Positions 60,972 through 64,000 of a stretch of 64,000 nt of DNA are shown piece by piece. How positions within the stretch are numbered: the stretch's first letter is position 1; each line of letters begins with the position of its first letter. Source of the DNA: a virus; the IMG/VR virus record IMGVR_UViG_3300044641_002725; one strand, 5' to 3'. Made by a program: the position numbers and the translations under genes. The notes beneath the pieces were generated by a model. That model was not told where the DNA came from, made no database searches, and saw nothing but the letters and a program-made list of their open reading frames with translations.

Positions 60972-61169
60972 TTTCGGGTTAGTCTCCGAATACTGTGACC
61001 CACAGGATGAGAAGTAGTGTGACAGCTACGGGTGGTAGTCTTTGAACCGAAAGGCCGCTGGCAATGCGAGAACGGAATCTGTCGGGAAGCGGGTGGAAGG
61101 TACATATGAGGGGTATGATAGCGTCATATCTTTCTGTACTATAATTACCGCCGAGATTCGCAGAGCATT
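60972..61169 (+). ncRNA. putative structured non-coding RNA, class unknown
   Basis: intergenic, GC-rich relative to flanks, nested stems, CC-GAAA-GG tetraloop. Confidence 0.6.
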
Positions 61170-61194: not shown

Positions 61195-61470
61195 ATGAAT
61201 GAAGTTGAAAAAGAAGTTTTACTAATTGCACAAGAAGAATGTGCCGAAGTGACACAGGCAATCAGTAAAGTTTTTAGGTTTGGTTTAGATGGTGAACACA
61301 ATGGTGCATCTAATCGTGAACGATTGACAGAAGAAGTTGGTGATTTATTTTGTATGATTCAGTTGATGATTGAAACAGGTATCATCAATATTGATGAAGT
61401 AGATAAAGCATCCGCAAACAAGAAAGCAAAACTCCAGAAATGGTCTAATATTTTTAACGAAGAAAAGTAA
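61195..61470 (+). CDS. MazG-like NTP pyrophosphohydrolase
   Basis: EECAEV...LTEEVGDL. Confidence 0.85.
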   Translation: MNEVEKEVLLIAQEECAEVTQAISKVFRFGLDGEHNGASNRERLTEEVGDLFCMIQLMIETGIINIDEVDKASANKKAKLQKWSNIFNEEK

Positions 61471-61471
61471 A

Positions 61472-61588
61472 ATGAATTCAGTATCGAAACCCTCAACAAG
61501 AAATTACATGCCATGTACGTGGCAGAATATTTCTCGCATTGAGAAATCAGATCGCCATACGCCACTGATGGGGGCTTGTTATACCTGA
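61472..61588 (+). CDS. putative attenuator leader peptide (38 aa)
   Basis: MNSVSKPSTRNYMPCTWQNISRIEKSDRHTPLMGACYT; ATG 1 nt after MazG stop; 3' end overlaps antiterminator arm. Confidence 0.5.
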   Translation: MNSVSKPSTRNYMPCTWQNISRIEKSDRHTPLMGACYT

Positions 61589-61663
61589 GGACCAAAAAAG
61601 TCCAAAAGAAAATATAAAGACAAGCCCCCTAGAGAGACAGCAAACTCTAGGGGGTTTTTCTTT
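61491..61663 (+). promoter_or_regulatory. transcription attenuator (protector / antiterminator / terminator)
   Basis: 61570-61579 GGGGGCTTGT exactly complementary to 61620-61629 ACAAGCCCCC; 61491-61500 pairs with 61575-61590. Confidence 0.65.
61625..61663 (+). terminator. intrinsic terminator
   Basis: CCCCCTAGAG-N10-CTCTAGGGGG-TTTTTCTTT. Confidence 0.9.
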
Positions 61664-61664
61664 G

Positions 61665-61726
61665 TGTTGTATACAAACAACATCTATGAAAATAGTTGTT
61701 GACAGTCTTTTTGATTGTGTTATACT
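61665..61726 (+). promoter_or_regulatory. tRNA-array promoter with TGTTG-N8-CAACA palindrome
   Basis: TTGACA 61699, 16-bp spacer, TATACT 61721. Confidence 0.85.
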
Positions 61727-61732
61727 TTGTAT

Positions 61733-61770
61733 TGAGTTGATCGTGACTCAGCAAAAAAGTTCTTTAACAA
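61733..61770 (+). promoter_or_regulatory. boxB-like hairpin plus rrn-type boxA
   Basis: TGAGTT/GACTCA hairpin then AGTTCTTTAACAA (E. coli rrn boxA TGCTCTTTAACA). Confidence 0.6.
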
Positions 61771-61792
61771 TTTGCATCCATATTTTTTATGT

Positions 61793-61866
61793 TGGGGATT
61801 AGTGTAATGGTAGCACAACGGATTTTGATTCCGTTGGCACAAGTTCGATTCTTGTATCCCCTGCCA
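61793..61866 (+). tRNA. tRNA-Gln(TTG)
   Basis: cloverleaf, ACGGA-TT-TTG-AT-TCCGT, CCA. Confidence 0.92.
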
Positions 61867-61869
61867 AAT

Positions 61870-61944
61870 GGTGACATAGCACAGCGGTAGTGCAATTGCT
61901 TCATACGCAATCGGTCGTTGGTTCAAATCCAACTGTCACCACCA
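61870..61944 (+). tRNA. tRNA-Met(CAT), elongator (Ile2 not excluded)
   Basis: ATTGC-TT-CAT-AC-GCAAT, CCA. Confidence 0.88.
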
Positions 61945-61948
61945 ATTT

Positions 61949-62023
61949 AGGGGTATAACTTAACGGCTAAAGTAGTAGGCTTTTAACCTATTAATCCGAG
62001 TTCGATTCTCGGTACCCCTACCA
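61949..62023 (+). tRNA. tRNA-Lys(TTT)
   Basis: GTAGG-CT-TTT-AA-CCTAT, CCA. Confidence 0.93.
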
Positions 62024-62118
62024 TATAAAAACACTCTAAACTGGACGCAGGTTCTGTGAAGTACGCCCTTGGATTGATCGCCAAGAAAGTATGGAGAATG
62101 AGAGTGTTTCTATATGGT
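62020..62118 (+). ncRNA. long inverted-repeat spacer element between tRNA-Lys and tRNA-His
   Basis: ACCATATA-A-AAACACTCT pairs AGAGTGTTT-C-TATATGGT (17/18 bp). Confidence 0.55.
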
Positions 62119-62190
62119 GTTGTTAGTTTAGTGGTAAAACTACGGATTGTGATTCCGTCATCAAGAGTTCAATTCTCTTACGACACCCCA
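62116..62190 (+). tRNA. tRNA-His(GTG)
   Basis: G-1/C73, ACGGA-TT-GTG-AT-TCCGT, CCA. Confidence 0.93.
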
Positions 62191-62199
62191 AAGATAATT

Positions 62200-62274
62200 G
62201 CCTTGTTAACTCAGCGGTAGAGTGTCTCCCTTACAAGGAGAAGGTCGGCAGTTCGATCCTGTCACAAGGTACCA
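62200..62274 (+). tRNA. tRNA-Val(TAC)
   Basis: TCTCC-CT-TAC-AA-GGAGA, CCA. Confidence 0.93.
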
Positions 62275-62280
62275 AGATAT

Positions 62281-62354
62281 TCCCGGATAGTTAAATGGTA
62301 TAACGTTCGCTTGATAAGCGATTATCGAAAGTTCAATTCTTTCTCTGGGAACCA
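62281..62354 (+). tRNA. tRNA-Ile(GAT)
   Basis: TCGC-TT-GAT-AA-GCGA, CCA. Confidence 0.9.
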
Positions 62355-62357
62355 AAT

Positions 62358-62434
62358 GCCCTCTTACTCCAATTGGTAGAGAGAGCGGTCTTAGAAGCCG
62401 TAAAGTCTCAGTTCGAATCTGAGAGAGGGCACCA
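62358..62434 (+). tRNA. tRNA-Leu(TAG), short variable loop
   Basis: GCGGT-CT-TAG-AA-GCCGT, CCA. Confidence 0.88.
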
Positions 62435-62444
62435 AAGTTTTTAT

Positions 62445-62519
62445 GCGCCTTTAGTAAAATGAATATTACACAACGCTACGAACGTTGAAGTGGGAGTTTG
62501 ATTCTCTCAGGGCGCACCA
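62445..62519 (+). tRNA. tRNA-Arg(ACG), atypical D/T loops
   Basis: CAACG-CT-ACG-AA-CGTTG; T loop TTTGATT; CCA. Confidence 0.85.
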
Positions 62520-62525
62520 AGTTAT

Positions 62526-62615
62526 GGAAGTGTGGTCGAGTCTGGTTTATGGCAACAGTCTTGAAAACTGTCGAACAGAAATGTTCCGTGAGTTCGAATC
62601 TCACCGCTTCCGCCA
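62526..62615 (+). tRNA. tRNA-Ser(TGA)
   Basis: ACAGT-CT-TGA-AA-ACTGT, long variable arm, GCCA. Confidence 0.94.
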
Positions 62616-62622
62616 AAATTAT

Positions 62623-62710
62623 AGAGAGTTGGGTGAGTGGTTAAACCAGCAGTTTGCTAAACTGTCATTGCGAAAGCGGTGCATGAGTTCGAATCTCATA
62701 CTCTCTGCCA
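62623..62710 (+). tRNA. tRNA-Ser(GCT)
   Basis: GCAGT-TT-GCT-AA-ACTGT, long variable arm, GCCA. Confidence 0.94.
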
Positions 62711-62771
62711 GTGATAAAAAACAACAACTACCGAAATAGTTGTTGACAAAAAATGTTTAGAGTGTTATACT
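62709..62771 (+). promoter_or_regulatory. internal tRNA-array promoter (half palindrome CAACA retained)
   Basis: AAATAGTTG-TTGACA 62743, 17-bp spacer, TATACT 62766. Confidence 0.8.
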
Positions 62772-62793
62772 CTATTCATAGATTAAAAAGTAT

Positions 62794-62868
62794 GCACGAT
62801 TCGTCTATCGGTTAGGACTCAGGGTTTTCATCCCTGCAAGAGGAGTTCGATTCTCCTATCGTGTACCA
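62794..62868 (+). tRNA. tRNA-Glu(TTC)
   Basis: CAGGG-TT-TTC-AT-CCCTG, CCA. Confidence 0.92.
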
Positions 62869-62869
62869 T

Positions 62870-62954
62870 GGAGATGCCGCCGTAATGGTATGGCAGGAGA
62901 CTGTAAATCTTCCGACTTATGTCACAACAGGTTCGATCCCTGTCATCTCCACCA
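62870..62954 (+). tRNA. tRNA-Tyr(GTA)
   Basis: GGAGA-CT-GTA-AA-TCTTC, variable arm, CCA. Confidence 0.92.
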
Positions 62955-62960
62955 AATTTA

Positions 62961-63035
62961 GGTGCGTTCGTATAGAGGTTATTACTGCGGATTGTCTATC
63001 CGCTTACGGGAGTTCGATTCTCCCACGCATCGCCA
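62961..63035 (+). tRNA. tRNA-Asp(GTC)
   Basis: GCGGA-TT-GTC-TA-TCCGC, GCCA. Confidence 0.92.
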
Positions 63036-63060
63036 AATTTTATTATACATAATAGTATGT

Positions 63061-63138
63061 CGCACGGTGGCAGAGAGGTCAAATGCAACGGTCTGCAAAA
63101 CCGTAAAGTCGTGAGTTCAAATCTCACCCGTGCGTCCA
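63061..63138 (+). tRNA. tRNA-Cys(GCA)
   Basis: ACGGT-CT-GCA-AA-ACCGT, U73-CCA. Confidence 0.92.
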
Positions 63139-63148
63139 GTTTTTCAAT

Positions 63149-63224
63149 AGCGGGTTACGTCAGTGGTCAGACTATTAGGCTCATAACCTAAAGGACGGAG
63201 GTTCGAATCCTTCACCCGCAACCA
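63149..63224 (+). tRNA. tRNA-fMet(CAT), initiator-type
   Basis: 1:72 mismatch (A:A), TTAGG-CT-CAT-AA-CCTAA, ACCA. Confidence 0.87.
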
Positions 63225-63230
63225 TTTTAT

Positions 63231-63306
63231 TCCTCAGTAGCACAGCGGTAGTTGCACTTGACTGTTAATCAAGGTGTCCGTGGTTCGATCCCACGCTGAG
63301 GAGCCA
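63231..63306 (+). tRNA. tRNA-Asn(GTT)
   Basis: CTTGA-CT-GTT-AA-TCAAG, GCCA. Confidence 0.93.
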
Positions 63307-63322: not shown

Positions 63323-64000
63323 ATGAAAAGCATAATTTTGTCTATATTAATGTTTACGTGTTTGAATGTTAGTGCCGTTACAGTCTACGCATACAATATC
63401 ACCAAACAGCATCCGATTGTTGATTCTGAAATTGATACGATAAGACCTATAGCAAGTATTACAAAGTTAATGACTGCACTAGTATTGGTTGAGAGTGGAG
63501 TTCCTTTAGATGAGAAAGTTCCATACAAAGGAATGTTCTATTCACACAAGAAATTCACTAGAGAAGAATTGTTGAATTTGATGTTAGTCAAAAGTGACAA
63601 CAGAGCCGCAGAAGCGTTAGCAGAAAGCATGGGCGGTAAACTATGGACAGTTTATCAAATGAACAAACGTGCAATTGCGCTAGAGATGTACAATACAAAA
63701 TTTGATGATACATCTGGTCTGAGTGCAAAGAACACCAGCACCGCAAGAGATTTAGTTATCATGTTGACAGATGCATATAAGCATGATAAGATACGTGAGA
63801 TATCAGCATTAAGTAGATATGATTTGAAAGTTGTTGATAAGAAGAATAAAGAGAAACAGATTCCAGTCAATAACACTAACGTGAAGTTGATGAACAAATT
63901 TGATATCATTGAAGTATCTAAAACTGGCACAACGAATGCGGCTGGTAAGTGCCTTGTTATGTTAGTGCATAAGAATGGTGACCAATATGCAATTGTTATT
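63323..64000 (+). CDS. D-Ala-D-Ala peptidase, family S11 (PBP7/PbpG-like); runs off window end
   Basis: signal peptide; RPIASITKLMTA (SxxK), KSDN (SxN), DTSGL, SKTGTT (KTG); absent from ORF track because no stop in window. Confidence 0.88.
   Translation, partial: MKSIILSILMFTCLNVSAVTVYAYNITKQHPIVDSEIDTIRPIASITKLMTALVLVESGVPLDEKVPYKGMFYSHKKFTREELLNLMLVKSDNRAAEALAESMGGKLWTVYQMNKRAIALEMYNTKFDDTSGLSAKNTSTARDLVIMLTDAYKHDKIREISALSRYDLKVVDKKNKEKQIPVNNTNVKLMNKFDIIEVSKTGTTNAAGKCLVMLVHKNGDQYAIVI

Follow-up and report, generated by a model that had tools for sequence, protein, structure and literature searches.

The timing and control of tRNA-array expression in phages are poorly understood, and the locus described here raises the question of whether an array of this kind could be controlled by translation of a short leader placed in front of it. 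The locus lies in a stretch of viral DNA of 64,000 nucleotides (IMG/VR record IMGVR_UViG_3300044641_002725), called the window below. Its source is an uncultured large phage with genes for a ribonucleotide reductase and a DNA polymerase of family B, and its nearest named relatives show only about 50% protein identity. The DNA runs containing the stretch are lake-water metagenomes, and neither the region nor a distant member of the family described below gave a blastn match among 50,697 cultured-phage records. A full-text search of the literature, with most subscription journals outside its scope, returned no report in which phage tRNA genes are controlled by a leader peptide.

All features of the locus are on the plus strand. 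A MazG-like gene (61195-61470; Pfam MazG, E 1.2e-05) is followed by a leader ORF of 38 codons (61472-61588); a single base separates the MazG stop from the leader ATG at 61472, and the leader ends in TGA at 61586-61588. This ORF had been pointed out in the initial annotation as encoding 19 of the 20 amino acids, Phe being the missing one, and both its coordinates and its composition were confirmed. The stop-A-ATG junction of MazG and leader is kept throughout the window's clade, and we propose that such an abutment of stop and start could provide translational coupling between the two genes. Further downstream lies an intrinsic terminator, which in the window also closes the MazG transcription unit, and then an array of 16 tRNA genes (61793-63306), the putative target of regulation. 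The interval between terminator and array contains a sigma-70-like promoter of the array (61699-61726), with 11/12 consensus matches, and, just 5' of the first tRNA, an rrn-type boxA-like box (61759-61774), which is conserved in all clades. In every clade, 13 consecutive bases of this box are identical to rrnB boxA as printed in PMC2176067. The promoters and the boxA-like box resemble those of E. coli.

Several other features were noticed in the neighbourhood. Upstream of MazG there is a GC-rich block free of ORFs (60972-61169), over which the summed depth of RNA-library contigs from three lake runs reaches about 22,000, compared with about 10 on the flanks. The block has no Rfam family match, is conserved in relatives, and is found within the tRNA array in two of them (L016 and L017); it probably represents a stable phage RNA that is abundant and belongs to no described class. 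Inside the array, a 93-nt spacer between tRNA-Lys and tRNA-His (62024-62116) has ends that pair and an inner hairpin, and one RNA contig skips 62018-62113, so this spacer is possibly a small RNA released during processing. The first tRNA block is followed by a gene for a D-Ala-D-Ala carboxypeptidase (63323-64000; Peptidase_S11, E 1.3e-33) whose N-terminus resembles a signal peptide.

Two hairpins are formed by the body of the leader. P1 (61509-61524) encloses the codon of an invariant Trp and is paired in 100% of cells in the window's clade, and P2 (61530-61546), which carries a conserved Arg codon, CGC (61535-61537), in its loop, is paired in 98% with one double change. Segment 2, the 5' strand of the antiterminator, is a G-run within codons 33-36 (61570-61580). 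It forms a duplex with 61619-61629, in which 61570-61579 and 61620-61629 are perfect 10-bp complements. From the start of the G-run to the leader stop codon the distance is 16 nt, and from the stop codon to the terminator arm it is 34 nt. Next to the stop codon there is a small hairpin in the antiterminator loop (61589-61603), kept only in the window's clade. Segment 3 (61619-61629) is, as indicated by pairing and covariation, common to the antiterminator and to the 5' arm of the terminator. The terminator itself (61622-61663) consists of a 13-bp core stem and a T-tract ending at 61663. Both the 2:3 and the 3:4 pairing had been proposed in the initial annotation; each was recovered by folding of the window and, as described below, by covariation in relatives.

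The whole region is more stable than shuffled versions of it (fold z -5.6). Once segment 3 is present, the window transcript has its energy minimum in the antiterminator fold, whereas the complete terminator (-30.6 kcal/mol with its extension) outcompetes the antiterminator (-23.2 kcal/mol). By their predicted pairings the two structures are mutually exclusive and, since the finished terminator beats the antiterminator, the choice between them would be kinetic. Comparison with Rfam gave a score of 27.2 bits for His_leader (RF00514), which is below the gathering threshold of 49, and no match to the T-box riboswitch at E up to 1.

Relatives were collected from IMG/VR by searching with the MazG protein of the window and then with that of a distant relative, which yielded 160 loci. 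At 17 of these loci the intergenic element and a tRNA array come directly behind MazG, as in the window. A further dozen have the array 1-3 kb on, behind another gene and headed by a diverged form of the element with its own promoter, and a 15-base pattern taken from this diverged version retrieved 37 more loci. The members analysed comprise 47 loci with 38 distinct leader peptides, whose identity falls to about 20%. The initial annotation had suggested looking in relatives for a conserved short ORF accompanied by a covarying antiterminator and terminator, and it is this combination that the 47 loci display.

The ORF varies in length from 32 to 43 codons among the members, is open in all 41 distinct sequences, and is retained between clades whose peptides are only about 20% identical. 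Its indels are multiples of three, and the length changes within the window's clade are all of three bases. The third codon position is the most variable one, with entropy sums for the three positions of 10.8/8.4/13.6 and 24.1/24.4/30.4. Three start contexts occur: the junction with the MazG stop, as in the window, a Shine-Dalgarno site, and a promoter adjoining the ATG. The last of these was found in at least 19 distinct members, where a near-consensus promoter has its -10 box ending 6-7 nt before the ATG, so that the transcript would start at the start codon and be leaderless. Each of the three contexts appears fit for translation, and we infer from them, and from the behaviour of the frame, that the ORF is translated. 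In four members with Shine-Dalgarno starts (L104, L123, L129 and L133) a T4-type late-promoter-like box follows a sigma-70-like promoter upstream of the leader; judging by these motifs, the leader in such members may be driven both early and late in infection.

The placing of the stop codon is equally regular. In all members it is found 11-25 nt (mode 15-18) beyond the first base of segment 2 that is paired, with 21-34 nt left between it and the terminator arm, so the siting of the stop at segment 2, to which attention had been drawn in the window, turned out to be a property of the family. As far as geometry goes, this position fits masking of the antiterminator strand by a terminating ribosome.

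The alternative pairing of segments 2 and 3 is conserved as well. In every member the terminator 5' arm finds its best partner in a G-rich segment with which the ORF ends (-17.5 to -29 kcal/mol). In the alignment of the 38 distinct sequences the core 2:3 helix is paired in 96.7% of cells, and double changes occur in 11 of 22 pairs. Its covariation score of 0.273 compares with 0.146 +/- 0.010 in shuffles (0 of 500 as high) and with at most 0.093 in controls with slid partners; the corresponding values for the terminator are 0.206 and 0.127. When segments were swapped between members, the mean pairing energy was -18.2 kcal/mol, compared with -24.5 kcal/mol for a member's own segments, and it amounted to -6 to -16 kcal/mol for swaps across clades. 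As the sequences are related, shuffle controls overstate significance, and these figures are not to be read as probabilities. A stronger argument than the shuffle figures comes from several clades in which both strands of the 2:3 helix have been replaced wholesale and the pairing retained. The terminator hairpin of one distant clade (members L094-L280) has a conserved GAAA tetraloop and conserved flanks, which is unusual for a terminator loop.

The structures upstream of segment 2 are conserved to a varying degree. The initial annotation had described three inner hairpins closed by a 1:2 pairing, comparable to that of the trp leader. Two of these hairpins, P1 and P2, are present and conserved; the third (61547-61568) is present in the window, but paired in only 65% of cells. 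P1 is kept across clades with differing stem sequences (mean z -2.4, 28 distinct sequences), and a conserved C-G-C follows it by about 10-13 nt. It is a reasonable guess that P1 is a pause hairpin for RNA polymerase, for which its conservation makes it a candidate. As the register of the hairpins changes from clade to clade, RNAalifold found no consensus in the global alignment of leaders. The 1:2 pairing (61491-61500 with 61575-61590) is not conserved outside the window's clade: it shows only invariance or wobble within that clade and is partly broken in the L109 lineage. A search across the family likewise gave no upstream partner of segment 2 that beats shuffles (mean z +0.5). With 1:2 unsupported, an untranslated leader probably reads through, unlike that of trp.

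What could such a leader sense? The full set of 20 amino acids is present in 18 of the 38 distinct leaders, another 18 have 19, and two have 18. Windows of the same length from the phage's proteins have on average 15.4-15.7 different residues; 2-3% of them reach at least 19 and 0.2-0.4% reach 20. With the six residues conserved in the family taken as given, the chance of at least 19 is 2-11%. Three of the 134 short ORFs of the window also reach 19 amino acids, and none reaches 20. A set of 19 is thus only mildly unusual in the window alone, and its significance rests on the relatives, where residue positions are reshuffled between clades while the near-complete set persists. Completeness kept despite reshuffling is what selection for completeness would be expected to look like, and as a pattern of sequence it supports general sensing. 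The leaders contain no runs of codons for one amino acid. The last 8-10 codons are read under a ribosome that already covers segment 2 and cannot signal, so the sensed set would be about 16-18 amino acids, and not 19. The zone capable of signalling contains 13-20 amino acids (mostly 16-18), and its enrichment per sequence is modest, mostly with P of 0.01-0.25.

A further point of the initial annotation, that the leader uses many G/C-ending codons uncommon in this genome, proved to be weak. In the window, 89% of the leader codons are readable by phage anticodons, compared with 76% genome-wide (p 0.03). The family average of 81.5% versus 75.6% does not differ significantly, that is, leader codons across the family match phage anticodons no better than those of ordinary phage genes do. 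We also considered whether the residue missing from a leader mirrors a missing tRNA. One close relative, G001, has 24 tRNAs for 19 amino acids without tRNA-Phe, and a leader without Phe. Within the window's clade there is a loose correspondence of this kind for Phe, from which two members depart, and it fails for Val and His; leaders without Val stand before arrays that carry tRNA-Val. The idea was therefore rejected.

The association of the element with tRNA genes is constant. It heads a tRNA array in every member with enough downstream DNA, and among the members retrieved by the pattern, a tRNA was found within 600 nt in all 31 for which 350 nt or more of downstream DNA was available. The promoter that lies between terminator and array in the window is a less regular feature. 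Four close relatives have a gap of about 70 nt at the promoter segment and no array promoter; G001, a complete 150-kb genome with terminal repeats, is one of them. In many members the interval from the terminator to the first tRNA lacks a promoter, and there the first tRNA block is reachable only through the terminator, so that the switch would act as a gate. In the window, the array's own strong promoter makes the switch an additional input. The earlier caveat that the element would be a booster rather than the only switch is therefore accurate for the window and fails in the close relatives that have no downstream promoter. Short palindromes overlapping the -35 region precede both array promoters of the window (61665-61704 and 62719-62750) and, from their position, are possibly operators. 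Two other members have about 330 nt of GC-rich DNA inserted between the attenuator terminator and tRNA-Glu (L133:5040-5368 and L135:5715-6041); an 18-nt inverted repeat flanks the insert, which has no Rfam match.

The reading of this locus which we favour, and which we regard as probable, is that of a ribosome-dependent transcription attenuator gating read-through into the phage tRNA array. RNA polymerase would transcribe the leader ORF, and a ribosome would enter it by coupling to the MazG stop in the window, or, in relatives, at a Shine-Dalgarno site or on a leaderless transcript beginning at the AUG. A ribosome keeping pace up to the last codons or the stop would cover segment 2, the 3:4 stem would then pair, and transcription would end at 61663. 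If the ribosome lagged or were absent, segment 2 would pair with segment 3 as soon as the latter was made, and the terminator would be blocked. The polymerase could then pass the boxA-like site into the tRNA genes, and this site, placed downstream of the attenuator, may constitute a second layer of control. As nearly every amino acid occurs about once and there are no runs, delays at many codons would add up, and the leader might serve as a gauge of general decoding capacity which feeds back on tRNA supply. Responsiveness to general decoding was also the central proposal of the initial annotation, and the findings in relatives agree with it: the ORF, the position of its stop and the 2:3 alternative are conserved, the latter with covariation, and the near-complete amino-acid set is seen even at about 20% identity. 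Metatranscriptome contigs from one run span the terminator and those from two runs are missing over 61512-61740; such contigs may include DNA, and they are compatible with a stop at the terminator as well as with its absence.

The favoured reading has to be weighed against three others, one of which concerns only the nature of the signal. All clades share a peptide core of Leu/Met-Pro, then the invariant Trp, then Ser/Thr-Arg, and in 26 sequences nearly all changes in its Leu, Pro, Leu and Gly codons are synonymous. Such constraint would be expected if the switch depended on the ribosome but responded to a metabolite or factor and not to general tRNA supply, the nascent peptide arresting the ribosome in a sequence-specific manner like TnaC, SpeFL or SecM. 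However, the core coincides with P1 and with the conserved bases after it, and constraint at the RNA level can explain much of its conservation. Moreover, an arrest mechanism would leave unexplained why 19-20 amino acids are kept in all clades with their positions reshuffled, and no known arrest motif was recognised in the leader peptides. An arrest peptide is a serious alternative for what is sensed, though in our estimation an unlikely one.

A second alternative is that the ORF is not translated at all, and that the choice of antiterminator or terminator is made by a structured RNA which either resembles a riboswitch or binds a tRNA or a protein. P1 and the 2:3 helix are indeed RNA features with covariation, and translation of the ORF is deduced from sequence. 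Against this, the frame is open in every member with indels in threes, it is preceded by three kinds of translation start, among them a promoter spaced to the AUG, and its stop codon is fixed relative to segment 2; in addition, no Rfam family was matched, the His_leader score of 27 bits against a threshold of 49 and the absence of a T-box included. We therefore hold a purely structural switch to be improbable. Even less probable, in our opinion, is that the ORF is an ordinary gene for a small protein, followed by its terminator, or that the 2:3 helix is for RNA processing or stability rather than attenuation. The conserved peptide core could suit such a gene, and the terminator of the window does end the MazG transcription unit. 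Yet segment 2 follows the terminator arm through complete replacement of sequence in several clades, and the element always heads the tRNA array, often with no other promoter present. The start contexts, the conservation of the frame and the covariation thus appear to make both these explanations less likely than attenuation governed by a ribosome.

If attenuation of this kind operates, a bolder and more tentative proposal may be put forward, which we consider possible. Large phages could carry a self-calibrating tRNA circuit in which a leader of nearly all amino acids times the ribosome against the polymerase, and the array is switched on only when host decoding is too slow, be it by starvation, by codon mismatch or by host anticodon nucleases deployed as a defence. 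Translation speed would then exert negative feedback on tRNA output, and a switch based on decoding speed would explain how this output is matched to the state of the host. It would also link phage tRNAs with host tRNA-cleaving defences by a regulatory step, and extend attenuation from the sensing of single amino acids to a general gauge of translation.

Known systems provide parallels to this arrangement. Antitermination in rrn operons likewise involves a boxA ahead of untranslated stable-RNA genes, to which the box at 61759-61774, recognised here by its sequence, corresponds; it differs in that this box lies downstream of an attenuator. The tnaC, speFL, secM and ermCL leaders resemble the element in being short, in having downstream expression controlled by the state of their translation, as is proposed here, and in a conserved core that includes Trp and Pro. 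They act, however, on Rho access or on translation starts and respond to a defined ligand or force, whereas the output here would be termination at an intrinsic terminator that competes with another RNA fold, and the leader peptides contain no recognised arrest motif.

Further parallels are the pheST attenuator, with its leader pheM, and the T-box, both of which control the decoding machinery according to tRNA charging, as the element may do. The former responds to a single amino acid and acts on a tRNA synthetase, and the latter binds uncharged tRNA directly with no need of a ribosome and, as mentioned, found no match in the window.

In its architecture the element resembles the enterobacterial leaders trpL, hisL, leuL, thrL, ilvL and pheL, with which it shares a short ORF, an intrinsic terminator, an overlapping antiterminator and, as predicted here, a decision that depends on ribosome position. 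Sensing of more than one amino acid is known from the multivalent ilv and thr leaders. Unlike leaders of amino-acid operons, the present one has no run of regulatory codons and contains nearly every amino acid about once, its stop codon falls within segment 2 or directly behind it, and there is no conserved 1:2 anti-antiterminator, for which reason it should read through when untranslated. Its target would be a phage tRNA array, and many of the leaders in the family apparently belong to leaderless transcripts. From its sequence, the element is best read as a variant of classical attenuation, in which a leader of near-complete amino-acid composition stands before a phage tRNA array.
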